Shown here piece after piece: positions 20,124-52,043 of a DNA stretch of 64,000 bases. A program made the translations under genes and the position numbers. The stretch is from Raillietiella orientalis. Lineage: Eukaryota. Each line of letters begins with the position of its first letter. Within the stretch, counting starts at the first letter, position 1. Below the pieces are notes generated by a model. That model worked only from the letters and a program-made list of their open reading frames with translations. It made no database searches and was not told the origin of the DNA. The stretch lies in NCBI GenBank assembly GCA_036172245.1, contig JAYWIR010000111.1, positions 62,001 to 126,000 of the forward strand. The letters run 5' to 3'.

Positions 20124-23068
20124 TTCACACCCGCATGTGCCGGGGCATTTATTTCATTGAAATAAAATTACATAGAAATGTCGCGTGGCGAACCCTAAGG
20201 TACACCACTCCAAAACATTTTGCTGGTTACCGGCTCCATGCCGGAGAGGTCCTTCCGATGCGCGGAGATGGAAAATAAAGAAAAACAAAAAGAAACAAAA
20301 AGTTCAAATGTGGGGGGGAACAAATGTTGTAGGGGTGGGAGGGCAGGGAAGGGAAGACGGTGCGCTTGGAAAGGTCCTCTAGATCCTACTCAGGATCCGC
20401 ACAAGCTGAGTCCTTTCAGCACCCAAGTGGCGCCACTTGCGTACACTGCGCGCGGAAAGGCGAGTCCAGTGTAAGGCGTTGCCGGTTGGCTGACGCCTTC
20501 TTCTGGTGGCGTTCCAAGCCGCCACTATTCCTCTGATGCAACAGAGGACTGCTACACTAGCCAACAGGGACAAGGCGTCACCACAGAAGAGGCGCATTAA
20601 AACGTCCTTTGGGCCGCATCCGCGCAAGTACAGGATCGCCGCGAGACGATCACACAAAGGGCGGAGGGCGCTACACTCAAGGAGAAGGTGGGGAATGTTT
20701 CTTTTTCCCCAGTCCGGTCACAATTAGGATCCACAGACCCCCGGGTTTTGTGGTGCAGGCGTGCTATGAATGAAAATCCCCTGAGAACCACAAGAAACGC
20801 CACATCCTGCCATTTCAGGGGGAGGGATGCACTGTTCCAGGACGCTGTGGGCCACTTTATCTCTTTCGGAGATAGTCCGAGTAGCTCGCCCCAGCGTCGA
20901 ATTCCGTTGAGCGAAACACTCGGCGTCGCAGCGTCAGCTAGCTGCCGAGATGTCCACGCCTTTATCGATTGTGTCCTGCCGCCTATAGTGCAGGACACGG
21001 TCCATTTCCCCTGCTCGCTACTGTCCCTGGCATTCACAAAGAAGGGCAGCACTGGGGCGAGGGGCGTTATCAAGGCCCCCAGAAGCTTGTCGTGGGACTG
21101 CACGATCTCCTGCAGCTTCCTGCGGGCGTGCCTTCTCATACAAGTGTTCCTTGTGCCAGCCGGAACGTGGATCTTTACCCAGGTGGAGACTGACTCGTAC
21201 AACCAGGCGGAGTAGTTCCCTGGGAGGCAGGAGATCCAGGCGTTCTCCCGAACAGCAACGAAGATGCGTCGCAGCATAGAGCCACAGTATGGTCTTCTGC
21301 AGACGCGTGCAGATGGAAACGACAAACGTCCGCCGATTCCGCAGGCTCGTTGAGCTAGCAGGCGTGCTGGAACGCACCAAGTCGTGTCCCACAATTCGGC
21401 CGCGAGGGCGAGAGTCCTGAATCCAAGTTGCAGTTCCATGCGCTCCAGCGTAAGTACGCCAAGTCCACCGTCCTTACGTGGAGCGCACAAGTCTTTGAGC
21501 CTCACACGGGACCTCCCTTTGCCCCAAAGACTGTCCTCAGAAGGCCCGCTGCTCGTTTCCGAATAAAATAAGGAAAGGGGCAAAGAAAAAGTAGGGGGCG
21601 AAGGAGGGGAACCGCAAGCGCGTTCCACACCGCGGCCCGTTCCGGGAAGTAAAACCCTCCTTGCAGGAACGGACCGATCGCCGTATCGACTTTTTGGAGG
21701 CAGCTGTACCACGCTTCCGCAGGGGAAAAGTCCCCCGACGGCACACCGAGGTACTTAATGCAGCTCACCGTGAGGATCCCCAGACGGACCCAGTCCTGCT
21801 GGCCTGCCCACGTCGCTCCAACTGGCAACACTGACGACTTCGCCCTGTTAAGCTGTAATCAGGCCCCACGGCTAAGCAGGTCGAAGAAATCGCCGAACGC
21901 CTTTGCCGGGGTGGACATAGGTAAGAGGAGAAGAAGATCGTCGACATAGGTTGCTACGGCTGGCGTACCGGGGCACGAGCTCGGCAAGGGGGCCAAAGTC
22001 ACCTTGTACGCTCTCAGCACCAACACAGCGTAGGTGCTAAAAAGCAGGGAGCTGAGTCTGTCGCCCTGCCTTATGCCCCGCCGCACCGGCACGCCATACA
22101 CCTTTTGTCTAGTAAAAGTAATCGAGATTATCGCAATCCGCCAGCAAGAGCGCAGGTAAGTAATCAAGGAGGGAGGGAAGCCCATGCGACCCAGCAGCTC
22201 CAAGAGGAGTTCCTGGTCAACACAGTCGAATGCCTTATGGAGGTTTACTGCGATCGCTAGGGCCCCTTTCCCGCATGAGGGTCCTTACCCTGTCCCAGTT
22301 TCGGCCTTAAAGTAGGGTTGCAAATTTTCCCTTTCCCTTCGTTCTTACTCCGCTGCGCGTGCATCCATGTGCTCGCGAAGATGAGGTTGTCCTCCATACT
22401 TCGCCCGGCAACAGCGTAAGTGTGCTCTTGGCTAATTATGGAATTGGACAGCTGCCCCAATCGCGACGCTCACAGCCCGGCAACCAACTTGGCGTCCGTG
22501 TTCACAATCGTGATCGGACGCCAGTTGCAAAGTTTCCTGAGGTCTCCTCCCTTCGGGAGGAGCCTCACCCTGGCTGACCGAAACGAGGCGGGAACATCGC
22601 CTTCGTCTCGGATTCGCCTTGTCAACTAGAGCACCAGTTGATACAGCTCTTCCGCGAAACTCTGAAAGAACTCCGCAAGAAAGCCGTCATCCCCTGCCGA
22701 CTTACGCCTCTTGAGCCTTTTGATACCGGCAAAAATATCAACGGTCGTGAAAGGCTCATCTAGGTTTTCTCTCTCCTCCTCCTCTATCGCCATGGAACCA
22801 CTCATGAGCAATCGCCGCGAGGCGTCTTGTTCGGATGGTGTTTTGGCGTAAACGGAGGAATAAAAACACCGCACGAGATTGCGTACCGCTGACGGGGACG
22901 AACGTTCCCGGACCAGGTCATTCAGCATGCTGGCTGACCCGGATTGCCAGGCTTGACGATCAGCTGCGGCGCGGTATTCGGCCAGGCGACGGACATTGGG
23001 GTTCCTCTCGTGAAGACGCGCGTGCAAATACGCGCGTTCTTTGCGAGCCCCGTCGCCGAATCCCTTGG
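20124..23068 (-). mobile_element. Family C element, 3' half (RT, C-terminus, 3'UTR); host of the A array
   Basis: 3' terminus AATAAA-TGCCCCGG..GCGGGTG at 20124-20153. ORF2 has RQGDRLS and PAVATYVDD, and is cut at PKGFGDG by A1. Confidence 0.88.
23054..23068 (+). repeat. 15-bp target-site duplication of family A (CGCCGAATCCCTTGG), copy 1
   Basis: Same 15-mer at 34634-34648 and, with one mismatch, at 40291-40305. Each copy lies immediately before an A 5' end. Confidence 0.9.
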
Positions 23069-23159
23069 CGAGTAGACGTGTGTTTCCCTCGCTCCCGAGT
23101 GAGTCGACAGGAAGCGGTTTTTTCTATTGTTGTTTGGTGTGGAACATCGTTGGTGTCCG

Positions 23160-24914
23160 ATGGCAGCGATGCCTGAGGACACCACGATGAATATAGGTGT
23201 GGGGGAGGCTTGCCCACCCCCACAGCCTACAGAATCAGGGGCGTCCGCCCCGGAATCGCCCTCGCCGCTCAAGGCGAGGAGCTGGAGCGCCATGGTGGCC
23301 GCGCCGAGCGCGGAAACCATGGCCGAGATGGCGGCCTACCGGGCAGCTGGGTAAAAGCCCAGCTTGGTTTACCAGGTAGGCAATCTCTTTGACGGGCGAA
23401 CTGCACGCGCTTTTTCGAAAGCGCTGCAGAACGCCAACGTGTTAGAAAAGGACCTTGACGGTCTATCCGTGCTAAGCGGGGGTCAGCGCGTTGAGGTTGT
23501 CTGCAAGGACATCACCTTGGCGCAAAGCTTGTTAACCACCCCGCTGAACGTGGACGGACGCAAGATCCTACCAGTCACGATGGACCGCTCCGTAGTGGTC
23601 CATCTGACAGGGATCACCAGCCGCATGACGCGGTCTGCGGTTGGTGATCAGTTAAGAAAGCACGGGGATGTTCCCGCGCTTTGGCCAAAGGCCACAATCT
23701 TCGATGGCTACGATAGCCTTTTCGGAGGGCAGGCCGCCGCGCGCGTGACGGTGAACGAGAGTGGGCTTCCCCACAAACTAGAGGTCAATGGCGAAGTCGT
23801 AGACCTCTGGTACGTGGGGAAACCCTGCTTTTGTGGCTACTGCAATGCAGTAGGACACTTGCGCAAGCGGTGCCCGAACATTGTGTGCCACTTATGCGGG
23901 GAGAAGGGCCACGTACGCCGCGTATGCCCTAAACGCCCCACTCCGGTGCCGCCTGCTGCAAAAAAAGCACAGGCAAAACGCAGTAAACTGGTCGAAAGAC
24001 CAAAAAGAGATACTGGCCGGCAGCAGCCGCTAGCCCCTGTTCCTCCCACACAGGCGTCGGAAGAAAAACCCTCCGAAGACGCAGGAGTCCAAGACGGCTG
24101 GCAGCTGGTCAAGGCCAGGAAGGAGAAAAAGGTGCACCCCGCGGAACCCGCGAAAGCGGTAAAAAAGACAGCCGGCAAGGCGAAAAAACCTGGGCCGCGC
24201 TCTAAGACCATGCGGGAATGTACGGTAGCACTGGAGCGCATAGCCGTTCCCGAGATTGCCACCCGGGGCGACGAGCCTTCCCTCGCCGTGTCCGCCGCGC
24301 CCGAGGTTCGCGACGACGAACCCTCTGTTTACACAGAGGGTGAGCCGCGCGACGCGCCGGTCGACACTGCGGACGCCGCGTTCGCAAAGGCGGCGGAGGA
24401 GCTCGCGGCCACGCTGGCGGAGCGTGAGAACCCCTCACGCAAGGCCGTGCGAAGGCCGGCTCCCGCGAAAAAGGCCCCCACAGGTTAGTCGGACCTGGGG
24501 GCCGGAAGTGCATCCTCCTCCTCGGAGGCACCCCCCAGGAAGTCGGGACGCAAGTCCCAGAAACCCAGGAGGCGCCTCCCCTCCACCAGCGAGGAGGAGA
24601 AGCAGGAAGGTAGCGGTAGCGTGGGAATCCCGGAGGGGGAACTCCCACGCGCGGAAGCCGTCGAGCCGGCCACCCCCATGGAGGAGGGTGAGCAGGGGGG
24701 CGAAGTCCTCCCTGCAGTCGCCGAGCCTGAACAGCCCGCCCCCATGGAGGAGGGCCAACAGGTAGGCGCCACCCCACTTAAGGGTGACCCCCTCGACGCG
24801 CCGTTACCCATGGAGGAGGGGGACCAGGTGCACGCAGCGCCTGACCCTCCTCCTCCACCTAGCGTCCCGCCCCAACAGGTGGCGGACGCCGCATCGCCAT
24901 CTTCCCAGGAATAA
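23160..24914 (+). pseudogene. A1 ORF1, zinc-knuckle nucleic-acid-binding protein (~584 codons, two premature stops)
   Basis: One reading frame with stops at 23352-23354 and 24486-24488. Knuckles CGYCNAVGHLRKRC and CHLCGEKGHVRRVC. Confidence 0.9.
24671..24830 (+). repeat. Three degenerate PMEEG(E/Q/D)Q peptide repeats in the A ORF1 C-terminus
   Basis: CCCATGGAGGAGGG recurs at a spacing of ~66-69 nt. Also seen in A0, A2, A3 and D. Confidence 0.8.
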
Positions 24915-25380
24915 CACCTGGGCTCGCCAGTCGCCGTCGGATTCGCGCCGCCTGGTGGAACGTCAACGGGCTGCGCGACGACGGTAACAGGCGAGATACG
25001 GCCGACACCCTGCGTGAGCTCGACCTGGCCCTGCTGCAGGAGATCCACGTGATCACCGCGGCAGACGCCCAAGAGATCGAGACGATCGCGGGGGTCGGCT
25101 GTATTGGCGGTGCGGCCTCTGCAACACCTGCGGGGTCGCGTTCTTCGTGAAGCCGGCCATCGACGCGGCCGTGAAGGGCGTGCGCTTCGATGACGACGGT
25201 CGGGTCGGTCAGATGATTCTCAGCTGGTCCGACTCGATCGAATTGATCGTCACGAATGTGTACGCCCCCAGCGGTAAACAGGGATACAGCGACCGTACCA
25301 GGCTGCTGGATTCCCTGAAGCGCGACTGGCTGGCGGACACGAACGTGCGGAAGGCTCACCTGATAGCGGGAGATTTCAAT
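24911..25380 (+). pseudogene. A1 ORF2, N-terminal endonuclease up to GDFN
   Basis: WNVNG, LLQEIH, TNVYAP and LIAGDFN, with a 1-nt frameshift near 25095. Confidence 0.9.
25373..25380 (+). repeat. 8-bp target-site duplication of B1 (ATTTCAAT), left copy
   Basis: Repeated at 31291-31298; single copy at the empty site in A2 (36945-36952). Confidence 0.92.
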
Positions 25381-25459
25381 CGAGTGCGGACGTGTTTTTC
25401 TTCGCTCTCGTCTCCGTGCTTTCATCCGCTTCATCTTGGCGTCGTACATTTTGACGACG

Positions 25460-27383
25460 ATGTCGTCCCAACTTGAAGCTACTGAAGTTGGAGGAACAGC
25501 ATCCGGATCTGCAATCGCGGAACCGACGGCCGCCTCCACTTCGTCTTTCTCGCCAATGGAGAGAAGTTTTGCTGACGTTGCTGCCACAGCAGCCGTCAAA
25601 GGGAAACCACTCGACGAGTCGGAGTTGCGGGCATACGTAGCCCAAGGCTATAGACCTGCTCTCCGATATAAGGTGAGTGGTTTTCTTTCTGCGCGCGACG
25701 GGAATCCGTTCAACGATGAACTGACCCGTGTTGGCGTGCGGGAGGAGGACCTTCTCGCCATTATGCCCGTAAAAGACATGGGCTATTTCAAGGTGCGTTG
25801 CAAAGACGCTGCACTTGTGCAACGCTTGCTGCGCACCCCGTTGTCGATCCGTGGCCAGAAGGTCTTCCCGGCCGCCATGGACGACTTATTTTTGGTGGAG
25901 ATTTTCGACATCGAGTCGGAAATCTCCGATACTGATATACGGAACGCGTTGGCGAAATTCGCCACGGTCCATGCGCTGTGGAGGGTGCGTAGCAACCTCA
26001 AGGACTTCCCGTCCATACACAGCGGAGTCGCTGGAGTCCGGCTTACAATGCCGGACCGCTGTCTGCTGCCCACCAAACTACAGGTGAAAGACACGGTCGT
26101 TCACCTGTGGTTCGTGGGCAAAGTAAAAACGTGCGAGCAATGCGGGAAGGAGGGGCATTGTTTGGATAAATGCCCCTCTGGAAAATGCCGTTATTGCAAA
26201 CTATCCGGGCACCAATTGAAAAATTGCCCGGATCTTTTGCGAAAAAAGGCAGCCGCGGAGCTCCATTTTAAAAAACAAAGCGCGGATAAAAAGAAAAAAT
26301 CTGCGAAAACCCTGGAGACCCCACGGCAGAAATTCGGTAAAAACGCGAGGCGGAATGTCGCCCCAAAGCAGCAGGAAACCTCGCACGCGAAGCCCTGCGC
26401 ACCCCCTCTCGCGGCAGGGGAGCCGCAAAAGAAAGGGTGCGGGGAATCCGGGGCAATGGTAAGTCACCCTAGGCGCAATAGCTGTCCTTCCCAAGCACGC
26501 CCGGCTCTCTCGGAGTTCGAGCAACCGGCGGGGACGCCAATGGACAACGGCGGTAAGGACACTTCCAGTACCGTCAGATCCATCCCTTCACCTCCTGCAG
26601 TGGCTGAGAAGCCCAAATCGGGTAAGAAGGTTTGTGCCGTGTCGACTTCGAAAGTCGGCAAAAAAAAAATCCGCGTCGCGATCCAACACCGCGAAAGCGG
26701 AGAAAAATCTCACGCCGTCGCAGTCGGAGAGCAAGCTCTGGACTGGCGCGGATGCCATGCCAACGGAGGGATTAAAAGCCCTTCCGAAAGCAGCGTCCAT
26801 GACGAGCGTGTCGGAGTCATCGAAAGTGCTCCCGTCCAAAGACGCGGATGGCTTCAAAGATGGCAATGGAGCACAATCTCCATTTACGGCGCCACGCAAA
26901 GTGAGGAACCGTAATGAAGTAAAGAAGACTTCAGCAAAGGTCCCTCGGGCAACTGCGCGTGAGCACGCTGAAAACGCGCGCGCAGGGAAAGCAGCCGTCA
27001 CCAAAAGCGATGCTCTGGAGACGGAAAAAGACAACAGGACAGCTGTCAATCCAGCAGAACCTGTCACTGCTTCGCGGAAGGCCGAAACCCGATCGAACAT
27101 GCGCCGGTCGGACTCCGAAATGGATGCCGTTCCGATCACCGAGACGAGGACAACTCGTTCGAAAGCGTGTGCGTGCCGATCAAAAGTAGGCAGCCAGGCA
27201 ACGCTCGCCGCGAAGCAACGCGAAGTCTCCACGAAACCCGACGGGGTTCAGCCTGGCGTGGAGGCATTACATGCATGCAGCACGACAGAGGACGGTGGCG
27301 ACCGTCCCCTCCAGCCAGTCGTGCTGCTCGCCGTCTGCTCGCCGGATAAAGAGAGCAAAAAGCCGCCACCTTCCCAGCAGTAA
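25460..27383 (+). pseudogene. B1 ORF1 (two zinc knuckles), frameshift in the A-run at ~26660
   Basis: Knuckles CEQCGKEGHCLDKC and CRYCKLSGHQLKNC. ORFs 25436-26914 and 26634-27383 join. Confidence 0.9.
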
Positions 27384-30300
27384 TGCGGGGAATCGCGTCT
27401 TCTCGTCGTCTGTCCGTAACGTGTTGGAACGTGAACGGACTGCAGAACGACGAGAAGAGGCGATTAGTAGCCAACGCCCTGCGCCCCTTCGACCTCGCGC
27501 TCCTGCAGGAGATTCACGTAATCTCCGACAAGCAGACAGCCGAAATGGAGCAGCGCGCAGGCAGAACGCTATATTGGCGGTGCGGCGGCGCACACACGTG
27601 CGGCGTCGCGTTCCTCATCAGAGAAAAAATGGCGGAAGCGATGCATAGTGTTCGTTTCGATGACAACGGACGGATAGGCCAACTTGTCATTAAGTGATCC
27701 GAATCCATCGTTCTCGTTGTTACAAACGTCTACGCGCCGAGTGGCTCTCGCTACCTTGAAGAAGGAGTAGCTTTCTTTGGTGAGGTGCAGAGCCACTAGC
27801 TCAACAACTCCGCCTTCCCAGTGGCGCACATCGTCGCTGGGGACTTCAACGTCCGCCTGCTCTCCGACCCTTGGAGCCGCCCGAGGGAGCGCGCGCTGCC
27901 CATCGAGATGTGCGCGTCCGTGCACGCCGCCAACTTGATGGTCAGCGAACCTGGAATGGAAAGATCGCTCGATCACGTTTTCCTCGATGAAAACCTGCAT
28001 TCGCGTGTGGGTAGGAGAGGAAGATTGTTGACTGAGCTTTCTGACCACCACAGATTGGAGTTTGAGATCCTTCCGCCAAGCAGGGGACCTCCGTTGCAAA
28101 GCTGGAGGATGCAAGCGGATTGGCTTAGCCAACCGGAGGCTGCGGAGCATCTACGTGGATACCTCCGGGGCTTTGCCATTCAAGAACTTGCGGACTGGGA
28201 CGATCTCAAAAGATCTGTCCGCGAGTTCTGTTGCCAATTCCCCTTGCACCGGCTTCCACGCGGTTTCGGAGAGGGCGTGGCCAACAGTAGAGACTTTCTG
28301 CAGGCCTGCACGTTTTCGAGACGCGCGGATGTCGGGCGTCTCGCAGAGTACAAGGCGAGGGCCGAGCGCCAGGTCTGGCAGTCCGGAGCAGCATGCCTGT
28401 TGGACGACAAGGGCCAGGAATGTTCGGCCCCAGCCGAAGTACGCCGCATTGTGTGACGCTACTACTCCTCGCTCTACGCGGAATCCCCGACGGAGGATAT
28501 TCTTTCTGAGATACTCCTGTCTCAGGATGCTCGTGTTGTCGGCGAGGAGGAACGCGAACGTCTCGACGAGCCCTTCACGGCGGATGAATTTTCGTCCGCC
28601 ATCGCTGGGCTGAAGAGACGAAAGGCGCCAGGCGAGGATGGGCTGCCTGCAGAGTTTTATCAGTGCTTTGCAGTGGAGCTCATTCCCTTGATGCTGAAAC
28701 TCGCGACGCTGATGAGTGAATCCGGGAATGTCCCGGATTCCTTCCGCTCAGCGAAGGTGCGTCTCCTGCCGAAAGGCGGAGACTTGCGTCAACTTAACAA
28801 CTGGCGTCCGATCACCTTGGTGAACTCGGACGTCAAGTTGTTTTCCAAGCTGTGGGTCGCGCGGTTAGGAAGAATCGCGGAATCTGTGGTGAGCCCGGAA
28901 CAAACCTACGCGGTTCCGGGACGATCCATGGAGGCGAACATCCTTTTCGCGCGTACATGGATGCAGCTGCAGGACGTTGTGGCGCAGCAAAGCCAGGCTG
29001 CTGCGAAAGTCACTGCCGCAGGCAAAAAGAACAGGCGCCGACGGCAGGAGGGAACGCCAGGTGCCTTGGCGGTCGCGGTCGATCTCCACAAGGCGTTCGA
29101 CTGCGTAAACCAGAAGCTGCTTTTGGAGCTTATGGAACGCCTTGGGGTCCCGGCGCAACTCCTGCTGTATTTGCGCGCGTGCTGGCGCCACGCGCTAACC
29201 TGCATCACTTTTAGCGGCTGCCGCGTGTATGGTATTCCCGTTCGTAGGGGCATCCGACAGGGCGACAGCTTCAGCCCGTTGCTCTTCAGCATCTTCTTTG
29301 AGTTGGTGCTAAGAGCATACAGGCTGACGCTGTCTCACTTGCCAAGCTCCTGCCCGGGAACGCCTGCCGTGGCCGCCTACGCTGATGACCTGCTTCTTCT
29401 GCTCCCCATGTCCACCCCGGCGTCCAGTGTCGAGGATTTCTTCGACCTGATTCGTCGGTGAGCGGGCGTGAGCGTGAACAGAGAGAAGAGCGTGGTCGTT
29501 CCTGTGGGTACGTCGTGGGAGGGGCAGTCCGACTGGATCCGCCTGGGGATCCCCACGGGCGGGTACTTTAAGGACCTTGGCGTTCCGTTGGGCGCTTTCG
29601 GCGCAGCCGAAGCGTGGGCGGACTGTCTTCAGAAAGCAGAGTTGGCCATCAGCCCGTTCTTTAACGGCAAGTTTACCTTGCAGGAACGGGCGACTATTTG
29701 AAACACCTTTGTGGCCCCCCTCCTCCGTCCCCTGTTTTTTGTTTTGGTCCCTCCCTATGCGGCGAAACAGCGGGCTGAGCGCCTGCTCAGGAACGCACTC
29801 TGGGGTCCGGCGAGATCCAAAATCCGCCTTAAAGATTTGTCAGCTTCGCGTCGGGATGCTGGTTTGAGTATCCTGACAATGGAGCGACTCGGACTGCAGG
29901 TGCAGTTCCGACTGCTGGCACTGTGTGCCCAGCTATGGACATCCCCCCTGTGTGTGCCAGCTCGCATTCTCCTGCGGAGATGCGCCGGCAGCGGAGGATT
30001 TCTCTCGCTTTTGCCGGGCACTCAATACAGGAAGCAAGGTTTCGGGTTTCCATTGCGGCAGTTGACCGCACTTCTGGAAGCACACTCTTGGATCTCCTGC
30101 CGCCCAATGAACTTTGAAGCTTGGCGGCAGGAGTCTGTTGAATCCTGGGTGGCGTTCCAAGGAATACGCCCTGAAGATCTTCGCCCCCTGCGCCAATTTT
30201 TTCCACGATCCTTGGAAGAAGTACTGCAGGACGAGGTGAAGTTTTCTACCCTGGCTGCCACGCCTCTTGCCGCAGCGCTGTCTGCCCTCAGGGCAAGAAA

Positions 30301-30977
30301 CGACAGTTACCAAACGGCGAGGTGGGAGGTTTCCTGCACGATAGCGGGAAGAACCAAACTCCTTGGCACCTGGAAGACAAGTGAGTTGGCGGACGCCTCC
30401 ACTCCTCGTTTAAACTGCAATGGAACTCCTCCGGTGGGCAGAAGAACTTGCTGTCACCCCCGAAGAACTTGTAGTCCCTCCACAGTGTATTGACGGTTCG
30501 CTGCTCTCCCTTGCTTGAAAACAAGCCATGGTGCTTTTCGTTCACTGGTGTTTTCATTGCAACGAGCGTTGGCATCCTGACTCCTTGGGACTTGCGTCTG
30601 CGAACTGATTTCGTAGCGGATCGACGGAGTCGATTCTGCACCTACTTCTGGACTGCGGTGTCCTACAAGGACTGTGGCGTAGGCTGGCAACAGCACTAAG
30701 GCATCCCGTGGACACCGCAAGAGACTTGCTGCGACGATTCTTCACGCCGAGCGGGCTGTCACTAAGCTCACGAATTGCAACCATCGGTTGCATACGCGCG
30801 TTAGTTTCCGTCCGCCAGGCGTTGGTAATCAACGGACAGCACCAAGAGGTAATCAGCAAAGCATCCTTCTACATGGGAGCATCCGCTAGATGGCCTCATT
30901 TGACAGAGGAGACAAAGAGGAATCTCGCCGCAATACAACGCCGGTTTACACACCCTCATCAGCGGCCAACCCGGTGA
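27383..30977 (+). pseudogene. B1 ORF2 (APE endonuclease-RT-CCHC), several stops
   Basis: CWNVNG, AGDFN, LDHVF, SDH, KAPGEDG, NWRPITL, DLHKAFD, RQGD and AYADD. Confidence 0.92.
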
Positions 30978-31298
30978 TCATTGCCCTACCCTCCATAAAC
31001 TAAATTTGTATTTTCTTTTTACACCCGCGTCCCCATAGGCTCCGGAACATTTGAGGTGCTCATCGTTTAAATCCCCGTGAGTACGGAGCCTAACCAAAAA
31101 CCCTTTTCCCTTCCCTCCAGTTTTTGATTTTTGTTTGTTTCCCCTCATTCCCCCCACGCTGCGAGCGGTTTGTTTACCAGGCCTGCGTGGCGGTAATTTT
31201 TCTATGTTCTCTGTCGTTCTGTTGGTTGGGGACATTGTCCCTGACCAGTTTATTATTATTAATAAACGCCCCGGCGTGACCGGGTGATAAATTTCAAT

Positions 31299-34200
31299 CT
31301 CCGTCTGCTAACAGGTGAGCCAGAAACACAAGAGAACGCGATGAACGAGTTGTGCGCCGCCATGCGTGCGCGCAACTTGTTCGCGGGTGAGAGGGGGATG
31401 GTCCGCAGCATCGACCACGTCTTCCTCGACGCTGACCTGTGTTCACGGGTCGGCAAACGGGGGAGGGTTGCGTCGACGTTGTCGGACCATTCCCGGTTAA
31501 TTTTCGATATGCGGCCTCGTGACAAGGGACCGCCATCCAGGGATTGGCGTCTGCCGGGGGACTGGACGCGACTCTCAGGTGCGAAGGAATACCTTCGCGA
31601 ATACCTGAGAGGTGTCACGCTCCGGAATCTCCAGGACTGGGACCTTTTTAAGGAATCGGTCCGCGAGTTCTGTGAGCAGTTCCCCCTGGATCGCCTGCAC
31701 CCCGGATTCGGCGAGGGTGCTCGCAACCATCGGGCCTATTTACAGGCTCGTAGGTACGAGAGAACCCCTAATGTCCGTCGCCTGGCCGAGTACCGCGCCG
31801 GGGCCGAACGCCAAGCCTGGCAATCCGGGTCGGCCAGCTTGCTGGACGACCAGGGCCGGGAATGTTCGTCCCCGGCGTCGGTACGGCATCTCGTGCGGAG
31901 TTTCTATTCCTCCCTTTACGACAGGCAGCCCCCGGATCGAAACGCCTCTCGGCGCTTGCTTCCGGATGGCGCCCCGGCAATAGGGGAGGAGGAGATGGAA
32001 AGCCTCGACGAGCCTTTTACCACCGGCGAAATTCTCGCCGGTATCAAAAGGCTCAAGAGGCGTAAAGCTCCAGGGGAAGACGGCTTGCCCGCGGAGTTCT
32101 TTCAGAGCTTCGCGGAAGAGCTGGCACCCCTGCTGCTTACGTTGATCAGGCTGATCCGAGACGAAGGCGATGTTCCCGCCTCGTTTCGGTCAGCCAGAGT
32201 GAGGCTCCTGCCGAAAGGGGGAGACCTCAGGGATTTAAAGAACTGGCGTCCGATCACGATCGTGAATACGGACGCCAAGTTGATCGCAGGGCTATGGGCT
32301 TCGCGTCTGGGGCAGGTGGCAGAATCCGTAATTAGCCCGGAGCAGACTTATGCTGTTCCCGGGCGAAGTATGGATGCCAACCTCTTCTTTGCAAGCACAT
32401 GGGTGCACCTGCAGAGAAGAGAGAAGAAAGGGATAGGGAAAGTCGGCAACCCCACATTGGGGCCGCCAGCCGGGCTGGGAAGGGAACCCCGGGCGGGGAA
32501 GGGGGCCCTAGCGCTCGCAGTCGATCTCCACAAGGCGTTCGACTGTGTAGACCAGGAACTTCTCTTGGAGCTCCTGGGTCGCATGGGCTTTCCACCCTCC
32601 CTGATTTCCTACCTGCGCTCTTGCTGGCGGAACGCGATAATTACCGTCTCTTTCAGCGGTCAAAAGGTGTATGGCGTGCCGGTGCGGCGGGGCATAAGGC
32701 AGGGAGATAGCCTCAGCCCCCTGCTCTTCAGCACCTACTTTGAGTTGGTGCTGAGAGCGTACAGGGTGACTTTGGCCCCATTGCCGAGCTCGTGCCCCGG
32801 CACGCCCGCCGTAGCAGCGTACGCCGACGATCTTCTGCTTTTGTTGCCAATGTCCACCCCGGCAAAGGCGGTCGGAGACTTCTTCGATCTGCTCAGCCGC
32901 GGGACCGGACTGCAGGTTAACAGGGCGAAGTCGTCGGTTGTGCCAATAGGTGCGGCGTGGGCAGGGCAGCAGGACTGTGTCCGTCTGGGGATCCCCACGG
33001 CGAGGTGCTTCAAGTACCTTGGTGTGCCGTTGGGGGACTACTCCCCTGCGGAAGCGTGGTCCAGCTGCCTCCAAAAAGTCGAGACGGCGATCTGCCCGTT
33101 CCTGGAAGGCAAGTTTCACTTGCCGGAACGGGCCGCGGTTTGGAACGCCTTCGCGGCCCCCATCCTCCGCCCCTTGCTTTTTGTTTGCCCCCCCACCGTG
33201 GAATCCAAGAAGACGACGAAGGACCTCCTCCGTATCGCCCTTTGGGGCAAGGGGAGGCCCCGAGTCCCACTGAAGGACTTGTGCGCTCCGCGTCGGGACG
33301 GCGGTCTTGGCCTCCTGACGCTGGAGCGCGTGGAAAAGCAGCTGCGGTGGCGAACCCTCGCCATCGCAGCGAAGATGTGGAGCACCCCTTGGTGCACTCC
33401 GGCCCGCCTCCTGGCCAGCCGTGTGTCCCGGTGCGATGGACTCGCGTCTTTTCTTCTGAGCCGTGACCGGAAGATGCGAAGATGCGGCCTACTGCTCGGG
33501 CGCATGGCAACATTGGCCAAGGAGAACAGCTGGTAGGTTTGCTGCCCCGCCAACTCCCCCGCCTGGCTGGAGGAGAATATCGGAACGTGGGCAGTAGTCA
33601 ACCAGAGAAGCCACGAAACGTGGAATCGTCTCCGATGCAGCCCCTACGCCCGCTGCACGCTGCGGAATCTCCTGGAGAGTTCAGCAAGATGCACGTGGGC
33701 AGAGACGACCTGCCTAGCTACGGCGCTACCCTTTTTAAGGAGGGCACTTCACAGCACCCGGACGCCAAGGTGGCAAGTCTCCTGCTGCATCGAGGGACGG
33801 GAGAAGTTGATCAGCGGCTGGACAACAGGAGAACTGGCCGACGCCTCGACCCCGAGCGTCCAGCCGCGAGGATTATTAAGATGGGGCGAGCTGCTCGCCA
33901 TCCCCAGGGATGAGCTGAAGGGGCCCCCGGTGATGAAGGAATCCAGGATCCTGCCCCTCAAGTGGCAAGAGTCGGCGTTGCTTTTGTTGCACTGGGGTCT
34001 ACCCTGCAACGCGCGCCGCTTCCACTGGACGAGGGGAGCTGTGGATCCTGCGTGTGCCAGGTGCGGGGAGCGGGAGTCGCTTCCACACCTTATTGTGGAT
34101 TGTGCTGCCCTCCGACCCCTTTGGGAACGGTTCGGGACGACCCTCGGGCTCCCTACGGGCAGCACCCCCAGAGACGTTCTTCGGCCCCTCTTCGTGAAGG

Positions 34201-34427
34201 ACGCACTGCAGCCAGCCGCAGCCATCGCAGCCTTGTGCTGCGTCCGTGGCATCGTGGGGGCATGGAGCGACGCCAACAACGAAGGAGTGGGTCCACAGGC
34301 GAGGGATGTCATCCCGTATGCCCAACGCTTCTTGCGAAGAGCTGCCGGATGGCCCCAACTGGGGAATATGCAGGCTGACCTCGAGGGCTTCGTTCGACGG
34401 ATGGGCCCTCCCCACAGCGACCAGTGA
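31299..34427 (+). pseudogene. A1 ORF2 remainder (C-terminal endonuclease, RT, CCHC)
   Basis: Open from 31299 to a stop at 33534-33536, then continues to 34427. Motifs IDHVF, SDH, DLHKAFD, RQGDSLSP, AYADD and CARCGERESLPHLIVDC. Confidence 0.93.
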
Positions 34428-34602
34428 TCCCGTCCCTGCCCTCCAACTTCTTTTTGTTTGTTTCTTTTTTATTTTACTTTTTGTCTCATCCCCATCCCCC
34501 TTCGCTGTCGGGGAGTGCCACGCCGGGCTGCGTCCCGGTGTCCCGACAGGTCCTGTGTTTACGGCCGTGGTGGGGCCTTGTACCACGCATGTAAAGTTTA
34601 TC

Positions 34603-34633
34603 AATAAACGCCCCGGGCGTACCCGGGTGGCAA
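34603..34633 (+). other. Conserved 3' terminus: AATAAA, GC hairpin, terminal AA
   Basis: AATAAA CGCCCCGG GCGTAC CCGGGTG GCAA. Equivalents occur at 31261, 40260, 48642 and 55388 (+) and at 11235, 14975 and 20124 (-). Confidence 0.85.
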
Positions 34634-34739
34634 CGCCGAATCCCTTGGCGAGTGGACGTGTTTTTCCTTCGCTCCCGAGTGAGTCGACAGGAAGCGGTTT
34701 TTTCTATTGTTGTTTGGTGTGGAACATCGTTGGTGTCCG

Positions 34740-36485
34740 ATGGCAGCAATGCCTGAGTACACCACGATGGAGGTAGGTGTGAGGGAGGCTTGCCCACCCC
34801 CACAGCCTAGAGAATCAGGGGCGTCCGCCCCGGAATCGCCCTCGCCGCCCAAGGCGAGGAGCTGGAGCGCCATGGTGGCCTCGCCGAACGCGGAAACCGT
34901 GGACGAGATGGCGGCTTACCGGGCAGCTGGGTACAAGCCCAGCTTGGTGTATCAGGTAGGCCCCTTATTTGACGGAAAAACGGCACGCGCGTTTTCGAAA
35001 GCGCTGCAAAACGCCGGAGTTAGAGAACAAGATCTTGACGGTTTGTCCGTTCTCAGCGGAGGTCAGCGAGTCGAGGTGGTGTGCAAGGAGATCACCTTGG
35101 CTCAGACTCTGATCACCAACCCGTTGAACGTCGACGGCCGCAAGATCTTGCCGGTGACGATGGACCGCTCCGTGGTGGTCCATCTCACTGGAATAACTAG
35201 CCGTATGATTCGCTCTGCGGTAGCACAAGAACTTCGGAAGTTCGGCGAGGTGCACGCTCTGTGGCCTAAGCCAACAATCTTTGAAGGCTTCAATAGCCAT
35301 TTCGGAGGTCAGGCTGCAGCGCGGGTAACCGTGAGTAAGGATTGTGGGCTTCCCCACAAGCTGGAGGTCGCGCAAGGGAGCGTGGACCTCTGGTACGTGG
35401 GAAAGCTCCGGTATTGCGGCTACTGCGATACCGTAGGACACCTTCGCAAGAGGTGTCCTAACATCCAATGCTACATGTGCGGGGAGAAGGGCCACGTTCG
35501 ACGTGTGTGCCCAAAACGCCCCACCCCGGTTCCTCCTGCAGCGAAAAAGGCGCAGGGGAAACGCGCACTAAAGGTCGCAAAACCTATGGCGGACGATGGC
35601 CGGCTGAAACTGCCAGATCCTCAACCTCCAAAAGAAAAGACGGAGGGTAAACCTTCCCAAGAGGCGGAAGGTGAAGAGGGCTGGCAACTTGTAGCAGCCA
35701 GAAAAGAGAAAAAATCTCCTTTAAAGGAGAAGAAAGAGAAGCCGGCCGGTAAGGCAAAAAAATCCGGGCCGCGTTCGAAAACTTTACGCGAGTGCACGGT
35801 GGCACTGGAACGTATCATCGTTCCGGAAGATGCCACCCGGGTCGACGGGCCTCCCCTCGCCGTTTTCGTCGCGCCCGAAGTTCGCGACTGCGAACCCTCT
35901 GTGCAAACAGAGGGTGCGCCGCGCGACGCGTCGGTCGACACCGAGGACGCCGCGCTCGCAAAGGTGGCGGAGGAGCTCGCGGCCACGCTGGCGGAGCGTG
36001 AGAACCCCTCGCGCAAGGCCGTGCGAAGGCCGGCACCCGAGAAAAAGGCCCCCACAGGTGAGTCGGACCTGGGGGCCGGAAGTGCATCCTCCTCCTCGGA
36101 GGCACCCCTCAAGAAGTCAGGACGCAAGTCCTAGAAACCCAGGAGGCGCCTCCCTTCCACCAGTGTGGAGAAGCAGGAAGGTAGCGGTAGCGTGGGAATC
36201 CCGGAGGGGGAACTCCCACGCTCGGAAGCCGTCGAGCCGGCCACCCCCATGGAGGAGGGTGAGCAGGGGGGCGAAGTCCTCCCTGCAGTCACCGAGCCTG
36301 AACAGCCCGCCCCCTTGGAGGAGGGCCAACAGGAAGGCGCGACCCCACCTAAGGGTGACCCGCTCGAGGCGCCGTTACCCATGGAAGAGGGGGACCAGGT
36401 GCACGCAGCGCCTGACCCTCCTCCTCCACCTAGCGTCCCGCACCAACAGGTGGCGGACGCCGCATCGCCATCTTCCCAGGAATAA
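34740..36485 (+). pseudogene. A2 ORF1 (one premature stop at 36132-36134)
   Basis: ORFs 34707-36134 and 36165-36485 are in the same frame; two CCHC knuckles. Confidence 0.9.
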
Positions 36486-39400
36486 CACCTGCGCTCGCCA
36501 ATCGCCGTCGGATTCGCGCCGCGTGTTGGAACGTCAACGGGCTGCGCGACGACGGTAACAGGCGAGATACGGCCTACACCCTGCGTGAGCTTGACCTGGC
36601 CCTGCTGCAGGAGATCCACGTGATCACCGCAGCAGACGCCCAGGAGATCGAGACGATCACGGGGGGTCGGTTGTATTGGCGGTGCGGCCACCGCAAGACC
36701 TGCGGGGTCGCGTTCTTCGTGAAGCCGGCCATCGACGCGGCCGTGAAGGGCGTGCGCTTCGATGACGACGGTCGGGTCGGTCAGCTGATTCTCAGTTGGT
36801 CCTAGTCGATCGAATTGATCGTCACGAATGTGTACGCTCCCAGCGGTAAACAGGGATACAGCGACCGTACCAGGCTGCTGGATTCCCTGAGGCGCGATTG
36901 GCTGACGGACACGAACGTGGGGAAGGCTCTCCTGATAGCGGGAGATTTCAATCTCCGTCTGCTAACAGGTGAGCCAGAAACACAAGAGAACGCGATGAAC
37001 GAGTTGTGCGCCGCCATGCGTGCGCGCAACTTGTTCGCGGGAGAGAGGGGAATGGTCCGCAGCATCGACCACGTCTTCCTGGACGCTGACCTGTGTTCAC
37101 GGGTCGGCAAACGGGGGAGGGTTGTGTCGACGTTGTCGGACCATTCCCGGTTAATTTCCGAGATGCGGCCTCGCGACATAGGACCGCCATCCAGGGATTG
37201 GCGTCTGCCGGGGGACCGGACGCGACTCTCAGGAGCGAAGGAACACCTTCGCGAATCTCTGAGAGGCGTAACGCTCCGGAATCTCCAGGACTGGGACCTT
37301 TTTAGGAATCGGTCCGCGAGTTCTGTGAGCAGTTCCCCCTGGATAGCCTGCCCCCCGGATTCGGCGAGGGTGCTCGCAACCATCGGGCCTATTTACAGGC
37401 TCGTAGGTACGAGAGAACCCCTAATGTCCGTCGCCTGGCCGAGTTCCGCGCCGGGGCCGAACGCCAAGCCTGGCAATCCGGGTCGGCTAGCTTGCTGGAC
37501 GACCAGGGCCGGGAATGATCGTCGCCAGCGTCCGTACGGCATCTCGTGCGGAGTTTCTATTCCTCCCTTTACGCCAGGGAGCCCCCGGATCGGAACGACT
37601 CTCGGTGCTTGCTTCCGGATGGTTCCCCGGCAATAAGGGAGGAGGAGATGGAAAGCCTCGACGAGCCTTTTACCACCGGCGAAATTCTTGCCGGTATCAA
37701 AAGGCTCAAGAGGCGTAAAGCTCCAGGGGAAGACGGCTTGCCCGCGGAGTTCTTTCAGAGCTTCGCGGAAGAGCTGGCACCCCTGCTGCTTAAGTTGATC
37801 AGGCTGATCCGAGACGAAGGCGATGTTCCCGCCTCGTTTCGGTCAGCCAGAGTGAGGCTCCTTCCGAAAGGGGGAGACCTCAGGGATTTAAAGAACTGGC
37901 GTCCGATCACGATCGTGAATACGGACGCCAAGTTGATCGCAGGGCTATGGGCTTCGCGTCTGTGGCAGGTGGCAGAATCCGTAATTAGCCCGGAGCAGAC
38001 TTATGCTGTTCCCGGGCGAAGTATGGATGCCAACCTCTTCTTCGCAAGCACATGGGTGCACCTGCAGAGAAGAGAAAAGAAAGGGATAGGGAAAGTCGGC
38101 AACCCCACATTGGGGCCGCCAGCAGTGCTGGGAAGGGACACCCGGGCAGGGAAGGGGGCCCTAGCGCTCGCAGTCGATCTCCACAAGGCGTTCGACTGTG
38201 TAGACCAGGAACTGCTCTTGGAGCTCCTGTGTCGCATGTTCTTTCCACCCTCCCTGATTTCCTACCTGCGCTCTTGCTGGCGGAATGCGATAATTACCGT
38301 TTCTTTCAGCGGTCAAAAGGTGTATGCCGTGCCGGTGCGGCGGGGCATAATGCAGGGAGATAGCCTTAACCCCCTGCTCTTCAGCACCTACTTTGAGTTG
38401 GTGCTGAGAGCGTACAGGGTGACTTTGGCCCCATTTCCGAGCTCGTGCCCCGGCACGCCCGCCGCAGCAGCGTACGCCAACGATCTTCTGCTTTTGTTGC
38501 CAATGTCCACCCCGGCATAGGCGGTCAGAGACTTCTTCGATCTGCTCAGCCGCGGGACCGGAATGCAGGTTAACAGGGCGAAGTCGTCGGTTGTGCCAAT
38601 AGGTGCGGCGTGGGCAGGGCAGCAGGACTGGGTCCGTCTTGGGATCCCCACGGCGAGGTGCTTCAAGTACCTTGGTGTGCCGTGGAGGGACTACTCCCCT
38701 GCGGAAGCGTGGTCCAGCTGCCTCCAAAAAGTCGAGACGGCGCTCGGCCCGTTCCTGGAAGGCAAGTTTCACTTGCCGGAACGGGCCGCGGTTTGGAACG
38801 CCTTCGCGGCCCCCATTCTCGGCCCCTTGCTTTTTGTTTGCACCCCCACCGTGGAATCCAAGAAGAGGATGAAGGAACTCCTCCGTATCGCCCTTTGGGG
38901 CAAGGGGAGGATCCGAGTCCCACTGAAGGACTTGTGCGCTCCGCATCGGGACGGCGGTCTTGGCCCCCTGACGCTGGAGAGCGTAGGGAAGCAGCTGTGG
39001 TGGCGAACCCTCGCCATCGCATTGAAGATGTGGAGCACCCCTTGGTGCACTCCGGCCCGCCTCCTGGCCAGCCGTGTGTCCCGGTGCGATGGACTCGTGT
39101 CTTTTCTTCTTAGCCGTGGCCGGAAGATGCGAAGATGCGGCCTACTGCTCGGGCGCATGGCAACATTGGCCAAGGAGAACAGCTGGATGGTTTGCTGTCC
39201 CGCCAACTACCCCGCCTGGCTGGAGGAGAATATTGGAACGTGGGCAGTGGTTAACCAGAGAGGCCACGAGACGTGGAATCGTCTCCGATGCAGCCCCTAC
39301 GCCCGCTGCACGCTGCGGAATCTCCTGGAGAGTCCAGCAAGATGCACGTGAGCGGAGACGATCTGCTTAACTACGGCGCTGCCCTTTCTCAGGAGGGCAC

Positions 39401-40080
39401 TTCATAGTAGACGGACGCCAAGGTGGCAAGTCTCCTGCTGCATCGAGGGACGCGAAAAATTGATCAGCGGCTGGACAACAGGAGAACTGGCCGACGCCAC
39501 GACCCGGAGCGTCCAGCCGCGAGGACTAAGAAGATGGGGCGAGCTGCTGGCCATCCCTATGGATGTGCTGAAGTGGCCCTCGCTTCTTCAGGAATTCAGG
39601 ATCCTGCCCCTCAAGTGGAAAGAGTCGGCGTTGCTGTTGTTGCATTGGGGTTTACCATGCAACGCACGCCGCTCTCACTGGACAAGAGGAGTTGTCGATC
39701 CTGCGTGTGTCAGGTGCGGAGAGCGGTTATCGCTCTCCCACCTTATTGTGAACTGTGCTGCCCTTCGTCCTCTTTAGGAACGGTTTGGGACGATCCTCGG
39801 TCTCCCTACGGGCAGTTCCCCTAGAGTCGCTCTTCAACCCCTCTTCGTGTAGGGCGCCCTGCAGCCAACCGCAGCCCTTGCAGCCTTGTGCTGCGTCCGA
39901 GGCATCGTGGCGGCATAAAGCGACACCAACAAGGAAGGAGTGGGTCAACACGCGAGGGATGTCATCCCATATGCCCAACGCTTCTTGCGGAAAGCTGCTG
40001 GATGGCCCCAACTGGGGAATATACGGATGGACCTCGAGGGCTTCCTCCAACGGTTCGGCCTTCCTCTCAGCGAACAGTGA
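36482..40080 (+). pseudogene. A2 ORF2 (APE-RT-CCHC), with stops, a frameshift and YADD changed to YAND
   Basis: Collinear with A1 ORF2; pieces 36620-36805, 36815-~37300, 37546-38520, 38563-39351 and 39460-39777. Confidence 0.92.
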
Positions 40081-40305
40081 TCCCTTCCCTGCCCCTCAAC
40101 CTCATTTGTTTGTTTGCTTTTTTGTTCTTATTTTTGTTTTTTCCCCATCCCCTTTCGCTGCCGGGGAGTGCCACGGCGGGCTGCGTCCCGGCGTCGCGTT
40201 AGGTCCCGTGCATGAGGCCGTGAGAAGGGGCCTGGTACCGCAATTGTAGAGTTTTTATAAATAAACGCCCCGGGCGTACCCGGGTGGCAACGTCGAATCC
40301 CTTGG

Positions 40306-42762: not shown

Positions 42763-42841
42763 CGAGTGCGGACGTGTTTTTCTTCGCTCTCGTCTCCGTG
42801 CTTTCATCCGCTTCATCTTGGCGTCGTACATTTTGACGACG

Positions 42842-44766
42842 ATGTCGACCCAACTTGAAGCTACTGAAGTTGGAGGAACAGCATCCGGATCTGCAATCGC
42901 GGAACCTACGGCCGCCTCCACTTCGTCTTTCTCGCCAATGGAGAGGAGTTTTGCTGACGTTGCTGCCACAGCAGCCGTCAAAGGGAAACCACTCGACGAG
43001 TCGGAGTTGCGGGCATACGTAGCCCAAGGCTATAGACCTGCTCTCCGTTATAGGGTGAGTGGCTTTCTTTCTGCGCGCGACGGGAATCAGTTCAACGATG
43101 AACTGACTCGTGTTGGCGTGCGGGAGGATGACCTTTTCGCCATTATGTTCGTAAAAGACATGGGCTATTTCAAGGTGCGTTGCAAAGACGCTGCACTTGT
43201 GCAACGCTTGCTGCACACCCCGTTGTCGATCCGTGGCCAGAAGGTCTTCCCGGCCGCCATGGACGACTCGTTTGTGGCGGAGATTTTCGACATCCAGTCG
43301 GAAATTTCCGATATTGATATTCGGAACGCGTTGGCGAAATTCGCCACGGTTCATGCGCTGTGGAGGATGCGTAGCAACCTCAAGGACTTCCCGTCCATAC
43401 ACAGCGGAGTCGCTGGAGTCCGGCTTACAATGCCGAACCGCCGTCTGCTGCCCACGAAACTACAGGTGAAGGACACGGTCGTTCACCTGTGGTTCGTGGG
43501 CAAAGTAAGAACGTGCGAGCAATGCGGGAAGAAGCGGCATTGTTTCGATAAATGCCCGTCTGGAAAATGCCGTTATTGCAAACTATCCGGGCACCAATTA
43601 AAAAATTGCCCGGATCTTTTGCGAAAAAAGGCAGCCGCGGAGCTCCATTTTAAAAAACAAAGCGCGGATAAAAAGAAAAAATCTGCGAAAAACCTGGACA
43701 CCCCACGGCAGAAATTCCGAAAAATCGCGAGGCGGAATGTCGCCCCAAAGCAGCAGGAAACCTCGCACGCGATGCCCTACGCGCCCCCTCTCGCGGCAGA
43801 GGAGCCGCAAAAGAAAGGGTGCGGGGAATCCGGGGCAATGGTAAGTCCCCCTAGGCGCAATAGCTGTCCTTCCCAAGCACGCCCGGCTCTTTCGGAGTTC
43901 GAGCAACCGGCGGGGACGTCACTGGACAACGGCGGTAAGGACACTTCCAGTACCGTCAGATCCATCCCTTCACCTCCTGCAGTGGCTGAGAAGCCCCAAT
44001 CGAATAAGAAGGGTTGTGCCGTGTCCACTTCGGAAGTCGGCAGGAAAAAAAAACCCGCGTCGCGATCCAACACCGCGAAAGCGGAGAAAAATCTCACGCC
44101 GTCGCAGTCGGAGAGCAAGCTTTCGACTGGCGCGGATGCGATGCCAACGAAGGGATTAAAAGCCCTTTCGAAGGCAGCGTCCATGACGAGCGTTTCGGAG
44201 CCATCGATACTGCTCCCTTCAAAGACGCTGATGGCTTCAAAGATGGCAATATAGCACAATATCCATTTACTGCGCCACGCGAAGTGAGGAACCGTAATGA
44301 AGTTAAGAAGACTTCAGCAAAGGTCCCTCGTGCAACTGCGCGTGAGCACGCTGAAAACGCGAGCGCCGGAAAAGCAGCCGTAACAAAAAGCGATGCTCTG
44401 GTGACGGAAAACGAAAACAGGACAGCTGTCAATCCAGCAGAACCTGTCACTGCTTCGCGGAAGGCCGAAACCCGATCGAACATGCGCCGGTCGGACTCCG
44501 AAATGGATGCCGTTCCGATCACCGAGACGAGGACAACTCGCTCGAAAGCGTGTGCGCGCCGATCAAAAGTAGGCAGCCAGGCAACTGTAGCCGCGAAGCC
44601 ACGCGAAGTCTCCACGAAACCCGACGGGGATCATCCTGGCGTGGAGGCATTACATGCATGCAGCACGACAGAGGACGGTGGCGACCGCCCCCTCCAGCCA
44701 GTCTTGCTGCTCGCCGTCTGCTCGCCGGATAAAGCGAGCAAAAAGCCGCCACCTTCCCAGCAGTAA
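42842..44766 (+). pseudogene. B2 ORF1, 1-nt deletion near 44220
   Basis: ORFs 42818-44254 and 44014-44766 join; two knuckles. Confidence 0.9.
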
Positions 44767-51920: not shown

Positions 51921-52043
51921 TGGAAAGGAATCGGCTGTTTATCCTGCATCCAGGCGGAGAAGTTGGAGAAGCTACAAGCAATTTAGCTTTTTGCCGAGCT
52001 GGATGGCTCGTAGCTTTCTTCACGTTGTAGCTTTCTTCAAGTT

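Follow-up and report, generated by a model that had tools for sequence, protein, structure and literature searches.

A retrotransposon family that probably inserts at one defined site in the coding sequence of sibling retrotransposons and stacks head to tail in Raillietiella orientalis

A 64,000-nt stretch of the genome of Raillietiella orientalis (GenBank assembly GCA_036172245.1, contig JAYWIR010000111.1, positions 62,001–126,000 of the forward strand; hereafter the window, numbered from its first letter) carries a dense nest of retrotransposons that lack long terminal repeats (non-LTR), or long interspersed nuclear elements (LINEs), in which three copies of one family, termed A, stand head to tail. 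The present analysis indicates that family A probably inserts at a defined target of ~15–16 bp, antisense of the A-K-G-F-G codons in the second open reading frame (ORF2) of sibling LINEs, namely element C and the older element F, and that it stacks by reusing this target. Several LINE families, lying on both strands, were resolved by self-BLAST and a tblastn map of the window. An original prediction, made from the sequence letters alone, had proposed that A targets the GFG codons of C/F-type ORF2 in antisense and stacks into a trimer, and within the window this interpretation was largely supported.

A 15-mer in the reading frame of element C

The 15-mer CGCCGAATCCCTTGG was found exactly at 23054–23068 and 34634–34648, and with one mismatch (CGT for CGC, a single C-to-T change within CG; CGTCGAATCCCTTGG) at 40291–40305, all on the plus strand. 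No further match with two or fewer mismatches was present on either strand of the whole window, and at least three matches were obtained in 0 of 100 shuffles (mean 0.22). As had been predicted, the three 15-mers sit directly before the 5′ ends of the copies A1, A2, and A3; the second, between the 3′ end of A1 and the 5′ end of A2, and the third also directly follow an A 3′ end, while the sequence before the first one is unrelated to the A 3′ end. In the self-BLAST, the alignment of the A copies begins at the first base of the 15-mer (23054 vs. 34634 and 40291).

On the minus strand, the first 15-mer belongs to element C (20124–23068, minus strand), a host LINE represented by its 3′ part, that is, ORF2 residues ~254–1156 in A numbering, as placed by the tblastn map, and a 3′ untranslated region (UTR) ending in ...GCGGGTGTGAA; the window lacks its 5′ part. 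Minus-strand positions 23081–23034 read TRLLAKGFGDGARKER in frame with element C, with the A-K-G-F-G codons, (A)KGFG(D) in context, supplied by the 15-mer, and this peptide aligns with the (P/R/A)GFGEG motif that is conserved in every ORF2 of the window. The GFG stretch lies ~70 residues past the end of the Pfam endonuclease match, which agrees with the earlier placement of the 15-mer just downstream of the endonuclease of C. The target copy may be 16 nt long, because a cytosine at 23069, 34649, and 40306 completes the GCC codon of element C.

Further, the left ten bases of the 15-mer (CGCCGAATCC) occurred elsewhere in the window only at the GFG codons of A1 itself (31704–31713, minus strand; 10 of the 16 target bases, unoccupied) and of A2 (37357–37366), giving four matches of this 10-mer in the window vs. 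0.19 expected. Since the 15-mer stands in the frame of element C, supplies its GFG codons, and shares the 10-mer with the GFG codons of A itself, the 15-mer before A1 is coding sequence of the host element, not random flank.

A second host and the occupancy of GFG regions

An older A-lineage copy, A0 (12886–14974, plus strand; its 5′ 2074 nt counted from 12901, cut at 14974 by the minus-strand B-like element E), was found inside a second host, element F (11235–12885, minus strand), a decayed LINE that retains ORF2 residues 258–303 and 738–1161 and ends in ...GCCGGGTGAGAA. A0 is preceded by CAACCAATCTTGTGG, in which 9 of 15 bases are as in the 15-mer. On the minus strand its left flank reads G*GVRN*RSYLQA in the frame of element F, and the GFG-equivalent codons of F also lie within 15 nt before the A0 5′ end. 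The A0 junction falls within ~3 nt of the A1/C position and in the same antisense orientation, bearing out the suggestion that A0 occupies about the homologous position of F. Between elements F and C, the C-terminal ORF2 region shows 33% identity, and the first open reading frames (ORF1) of A0 and A2 differ with a synonymous divergence (dS) of 1.09 and a nonsynonymous to synonymous ratio (dN/dS) of 0.27; accordingly, the two pairs of host and insert did not arise by decay of copies of a single event. For a host of ~5.6 kb, the odds that two random hits fall within 7 positions and in one orientation were estimated by us at roughly 6 in 10,000.

Eight GFG regions were found in the window, 2 of them filled and 6 empty. 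An uninterrupted N-terminal part of ORF2 lies at 59655–60502 (minus strand; residues 2–282, with the GFG codons at 59724–59732), and minus-strand 59655–59786 carries the GFG region intact (PAGFGESVRNESWYLQA), as noted previously for the place near 59.7 kb, with only 8 of 16 target bases matching by our count. Insertion of element F itself at the same GFG site was considered and rejected, as F follows ...FAIQEL and thus sits ~24 codons upstream of it.

Family B as an internal control

Family B, which starts with GAGTGCGGACGTGT... and ends with ...CCGGGTGATAA, is similar to A in its 5′ start and its 3′ stem-loop. B1 (25382–31290, plus strand, 5909 nt) is nested in A1 and bounded by ATTTCAATC at 25373–25381 and 31291–31299; B2 (42764–48671, plus strand) lies inside A3 and is preceded by ATTTCAATC at 42755–42763. 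The same 9-mer at 48672–48680 (plus strand) separates B2 from B3 in a B-B tandem, and B3 (48681–50846, plus strand), also inside A3, is represented by its 5′ 2.2 kb and ends at a rearrangement. ATTTCAATC is part of the AGDFN codons of the A endonuclease, and B was inserted there in sense with a 9-nt duplication; the A site is hence, as originally claimed, a second specificity distinct from that of B. The B site is filled in A1 and A3 and empty in A2, with a single ATTTCAATC at 36945–36953, and in an A-like piece (52146–52343); altogether, 3 of the 11 endonuclease copies with this region are filled. In addition, an older B-like element (9470–9580; ORF1 52% identical to that of B) starts with CGAGTGGGGACGTGT directly after the codons GGA GAC TTC AGT (GDFS) in an A-like element, which shares 41–44% identity with A in ORF1, so that the same site is used in a second, much diverged host.

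From the duplication, the empty site, and the tandem of family B, it follows that this LINE group does insert precisely, with duplication, and forms tandems that sandwich the duplication. The endonucleases of A and B are ~50% identical by a rough estimate and have different target sequences.

Divergence and origin of the stacked copies

A1 is split by B1 into a left part (23069–25381, plus strand), comprising the 5′ UTR, ORF1 with two stops, and ORF2 residues 1–121 up to the GDFN codons, and a right part (31300–34633, plus strand) with the rest of ORF2, including the reverse transcriptase (RT) and a putative C-terminal Cys motif, and the 3′ UTR; when B1 is removed, ORF2 comprises 866 + 296 codons with a single stop. 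A2 (34649–40290, plus strand, 5642 nt) is uninterrupted, with an open ORF1 (483 aa) and an ORF2 that carries one frame change, between two matched pieces, and eight stops. A3 (40306–42763, plus strand) is represented by its 5′ 2458 nt, up to the GDFN codons, followed by the two B copies and a rearrangement (~50850), and its 3′ half is not in the window. A complete 5′ end is kept in 4 of 4 A-lineage copies.

The three copies are 62–79% identical in central ORF1, the substantial difference that had been noted at the outset. A1 and A2 are 94–97% identical over most of their length and 81–89% in the last 850 nt, and the 5′ part of A3 beyond the first 149 nt is 53–90% identical to A1 and A2, segment by segment. 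The pairwise divergence, which the original prediction had proposed to measure, amounted between A1 and A2 to a dS of 1.27 (dN/dS 0.145) in central ORF1 vs. 0.07–0.09 (dN/dS 0.84–0.91) at the ORF1 ends, and to a dS of 0.10 in ORF2, with 0.22 in its last third. To judge from these values, the stacked A copies are mosaics derived from different, selected source elements that exchanged modules, and not DNA duplicates, and the mosaic dS pattern points to separate integrations rather than the copying of one insertion.

It was considered whether, instead, the array goes back to a single A insertion that was multiplied as DNA when target copies underwent unequal crossing-over or replication slippage, with later divergence or gene conversion of the copies. 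The high identity of A1 and A2 over most of their length and the clearly rearranged state of the cluster are compatible with this, and the R1 study, in the part available to us, describes dimers expanded by unequal exchange (10.1101/158386). However, the mosaic divergence, with its old, selected component in central ORF1, the segment-wise distance of A3 from both other copies, and the presence of B in A1 and A3, not in A2, speak against such multiplication, which we regard as quite unlikely.

An assembly artefact of the repeat-rich region might also produce a head-to-tail arrangement, given a dense nest of repeats that are 62–97% similar. The window was compared over 21500–41400, at 90% likeness, with the contigs of a public run (X1) from a genome 1–3% different (24% of words). 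The depth of these contigs was 8–38 over A1 and B1 and 0.25–9 over A2 and the 5′ part of A3, which are thus thinly covered. Nevertheless, the three A copies are different enough for unique placement, and their junctions are base-precise and identical in form; the X1 contigs cross the B1 junctions as well, by just 30 and 19 nt, which lends weak support. An artefact is accordingly held to be highly improbable. Among the X1 matches listed (6 of 84 loose ends and 8 of 238 pieces), none was located at 23054, 34634, or 40291, and these matches are uninformative on the A flanks.

The first 150 nt of the copies (23069–23218, 34649–34798, and 40306–40455) were observed to be 93–94% identical among A1, A2, and A3, while the adjacent ORF1 is 62–79% identical. 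Such a contrast would be expected if the 5′ module is under constraint, for example as an internal promoter or a 5′ joining signal, or if it was shared recently.

Proposed route of insertion and points against it

The arrangement could be produced by target-primed reverse transcription, in which a sequence-specific first nick would be made on the host coding strand directly 3′ of ...GGATTCGGCG and a second one 15–16 nt away on the other strand, so that a copy of the target would flank the insert on either side. One of the two copies would then be reused as a target, and in this way three A elements of different source lineages would come to stand head to tail, with one target copy between the members of each pair. 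New A copies would enter at the left-most target copy, the sole one that keeps the flank of element C at the first nick. In R1 elements, a downstream target copy in the transcript has been described to aid priming; by analogy, A transcripts that extend into the target copy downstream could base-pair with the strand that was nicked. The duplication at A, the nick positions, the arrival order, and the genome-wide specificity are steps that we infer from the arrangement in the window.

Stops and frame changes numbered 3 in ~4.9 kb of A1, 9 in ~4.9 kb of A2, 5 in ~2.0 kb of A3, and 5 in ~1.5 kb of A0 (lengths are our estimates). The lesion density that rises from A1 to A3 fits an entry of newer copies at the left-most target copy.

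Several observations weigh against insertion of A at a defined, reused site. The window does not contain the right end of the array: the 31-mer of the A 3′ end occurs in it only twice, and the tblastn map showed no minus-strand C-type ORF2 N-terminus or ORF1; consequently, the 15-mer expected between the last A copy and element C, which would be direct proof of the duplication, is not visible. The earlier claim of repeated independent integration into a regenerated target holds for the separate insertions, as the mosaic dS values suggest; that the 15-mer is a target-site duplication is not proven. Likewise, the comparison of filled and empty sites proposed earlier, confined here to the window, yielded the two filled GFG regions but no empty cognate C-type site, all six empty regions being non-cognate and differing at ≥4 of 15–16 bases. 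Only two independent host contexts, in one window, are at hand, decay of the A0 flank limits the placement of its junction to within 3 nt, and the age gradient is based on few lesions. Moreover, among the matches listed, two X1 contigs carry a B-type 3′ terminus with a flank that does not occur in the window; elements ending in this way must therefore also sit at places other than the present site, which advises caution about strict specificity.

These points bear on an alternative in which the 15-mer travels with A, either as its true 5′ terminus or as a piece of an earlier host carried along because transcription had started upstream, and A joins C-type ORF2 by homology, or in which the site is a local hot spot and A is not target-specific genome-wide. 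Consistent with a travelling 15-mer, either the 15-mer or its 9/15 relative stands before each A 5′ end of the window, the 15-mer could belong to the conserved 150-nt module that contrasts with the divergent ORF1, and the right-hand copy that would prove a duplication is missing. On the other hand, at A1 the 15-mer is needed for the frame of element C and supplies the GFG codons at their exact place, so that a travelling 15-mer would require a precise replacement of 15 bp of C, which is still site-specific insertion. The position of the GFG-equivalent codons of F before A0, and the true duplication and empty site of the sister family B, also argue against it. This alternative is hence considered unlikely, and insertion of A at the GFG codons is retained as the probable explanation.

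Comparison with known target-specific elements

Elements of the Tx1 clade, which is found in animals, insert preferentially into particular DNA transposons or LTR retrotransposons, for example, Tx1 into Tx1D, the crocodilian Tx1-Mar into Mariner-N4_AMi, and Tx1-8_Crp and Tx1-4_AMi into LTR retrotransposons, and their tandems that sandwich a 16-nt duplication were ascribed to sequential insertion, according to the part of the source available (PMC4494074). The elements analyzed here are similar to them in the apurinic/apyrimidinic endonuclease (APE)-type build, the defined site inside another transposable element, the putative duplication of ~16 nt, and the tandems. They differ in that the target is the coding sequence of a sibling LINE, at the codons of a conserved motif and in antisense, and in the chain made up by at least two families, with B inserting into A and A into C/F; the likeness is drawn by features, not by a tree.

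The arthropod R1, an APE-type element specific for 28S ribosomal DNA, forms tandems separated by the duplicated target, for which double insertion is given as a route in the accessible part of the report (10.1101/158386). Sequence-specific insertion, head-to-tail arrays, and, putatively, the duplication are shared with R1. In contrast, the R1 target is a host ribosomal RNA gene and here it is another LINE, and the R1 array, so far as that report was available, was later expanded by unequal exchange, whereas the three A copies are distinct elements.

Zepp clusters measure 1.5–42 kb with 61% GC vs. 53% for the genome, and the clusters of Zepp and Zepp-like L1 LINEs of green algae are putative centromeres, as described in the available portion of the literature (PMC3446292 for the cluster sizes and GC contents). 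A GC-rich island of nested LINE copies is likewise present here (~51 kb, 54–62% GC), a likeness that does not imply relatedness of the sequences. Unlike the island in the window, which holds several diverged families, each with its own site, and 5′ ends that are complete in the A lineage, the Zepp arrays consist mostly of 3′ ends produced by 5′ truncation, in the same portion of that literature.

The type of behaviour is therefore known from other target-specific LINEs, and what is unusual is the use of sibling-LINE ORF2 codons in antisense and the two-level chain. A literature search, limited in extent and not proof of absence, retrieved no LINE that targets the ORF2 of another LINE; the targets described for target-specific LINEs, in the parts of the sources available, are host multicopy genes, microsatellites, DNA transposons, and LTR elements.

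If site-specific insertion of A is correct, it would clearly exemplify a transposon that lives on another one, with B repeating the behaviour one level down, and would provide a concrete route by which LINE-only islands form and stay confined. Target-specific LINEs are models of how an endonuclease and an RT find one genomic address, and work is under way to adapt them to safe-harbour gene insertion; the A and B endonucleases, related but with different known targets, would suit the dissection of specificity.

As a more tentative possibility, which we would not at present favour, the elements may form a guild of sibling LINE families, in which each endonuclease has evolved for the codons of a conserved motif in the ORF2 of another sibling (B into GDFN of A, A into GFG of C/F), so that they parasitise one another rather than the host genome and together build and renew a GC-rich, LINE-only island. 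In such a guild, the target would be unable to mutate away without crippling the host element, the island would belong to the type that in some algae acts as a putative centromere, and a sequence-level mechanism would be given for nested insertion that targets existing copies.

Structure of family A and the shared 3′ terminus

On the basis of its domain content, family A appears to be an APE-type non-LTR retrotransposon of L1-like build, with a putative zinc knuckle in ORF1 and an endonuclease, an RT, and a putative C-terminal Cys motif in ORF2. Pfam searches of the long frames returned RT and APE-type endonuclease, with sub-threshold zinc-knuckle and zf-RVT matches. In detail, PF00078 matched A1 31266–33536 with E 2.3e-23 (83.4 bits, cut-off 29.6), and PF03372 matched A2 36806–37636 with E 5.9e-4 (20.1 bits, below the cut-off of 24.5) and reached 36.9 bits, above the cut-off, in the sibling element E. 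PF13966 on 33537–34427 (E 0.013, 16.5 bits) and zf-CCHC on ORF1 (E 8.6e-4, 19.7 bits) remained under their curated cut-offs of 27.5 and 20.8, respectively. The GDFN motif of the A endonuclease reads LLIAGDFNLRLL.

The A 5′ end sequence is GAGTGGACGTGT..., with the start given as GAGTGGACG; A2 starts with CGAGTGGACGTGT..., and the common 5′ end of the copies after the 15-mer is CGAGT(G/A)GACGTGT.... A 3′ poly(A) tail is typical of L1. The A copies end in ...AATAAACGCCCCGGGCGTACCCGGGTGGCAA, the end of the A1 3′ UTR being ...CCCGGGTGGCAA, without poly(A) or an A run.

Families A, B, C, E, and F share a 3′ terminus, composed of AATAAACGCCCCGG, a loop, CCGGGTG, two variable bases, and AA, at 34584–34633 and 31241–31290 on the plus strand and at 14975–15024, 11236–11285, and 20125–20174 on the minus strand. 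In all five families the stem-loop is followed by TG-NN-AA and no poly(A) is present. None of the 7 stem pairs showed a compensatory change when covariation was examined, the stem being simply conserved. The shared stem-loop looks like the RT recognition hairpin of ‘stringent’ LINEs.

Elements C and A1 (20382–23072, minus strand, vs. 31290–34424) are 83% identical at the amino acid level in the RT region and 41% in the C-terminal region. More generally, the C-terminal ORF2 regions are 20–53% identical between families, and ORF1 modules are likewise shuffled among A0–A3. The LINE families are, by these comparisons, modular and exchange modules between families.

Other insertions and rearranged parts

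Other families were observed at other sites, in one instance each: element F (minus strand) ends inside a B-like ORF2 (11200–11290), element E (minus strand) ends inside A0 near ORF2 residue 41 (14960–15010), and the 3′ end of element C (20124) abuts a minus-strand ORF1 fragment. With a single instance each, no site specificity is claimed for F, E, or C.

At 50846–52034, B3 (plus strand) breaks off near ORF2 residue 20 and abuts a minus-strand element (50852–52034) with a 5′ UTR of its own, a short ORF1, and the start of an ORF2 (...RITCWNVNGLRDD) broken near residue 35, so that two different families meet at ~50850 in inverted orientation and at almost homologous positions. This piece was considered as the missing 5′ part of E or C and rejected, as it has an ORF1 end and an ORF2 start of its own. 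The junction was perhaps caused by an event, either inversion or deletion, in which the 3′ half of A3 and the 5′ half of C were lost as well.

Further downstream, plus-strand 52035–55415 joins an A-like endonuclease part (79% identical in amino acids to A1, residues 48–227) to a B-like RT part (residues 315–1160, 80–91% identical to B2), with residues 228–314, including the GFG region, missing. This element represents either a recombinant carrying a deletion or a 5′-truncated B within an A-like copy, and its 3′ flank is ATTTC followed by unrelated sequence. The A-like piece at 52035–52573 could continue A0 only if ~70 nt are missing, and it resembles A1 and A2 more than A0 does.

The LINE island and its relatives

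The LINE nest occupies ~4.3–55.5 kb, an island of ~51 kb, and resumes from 59.6 kb to the window end, with 54–62% GC vs. 40–49% in the bordering stretches. Inspection by eye of the ORF listings of the AT-richer flanks (1–4400 and 55400–59700) showed no recognisable gene, and an Rfam search over the whole window gave 0 matches.

The nearest database protein is a fragment with 70% identity, and the remaining relatives are at most 35% identical, mostly of endonuclease, RT, and zf-RVT build, with fish RT proteins among the nearest named matches; the top relatives carry PF03372, PF00078, and PF13966. An Atlas search led to generic RT clusters only. A metagenome protein-pattern scan kept 80 loci, all 22–34% identical and too distant to inform on the target, and the 31-nt A 3′ end gave 0 matches in metagenomes.

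The GC-rich island is broken at 55500–59600 by ~4 kb of ~40% GC without a recognisable coding frame, and the minus-strand ORF2 part at 59655–60502 stops abruptly, at residue 282, at the edge of this stretch.

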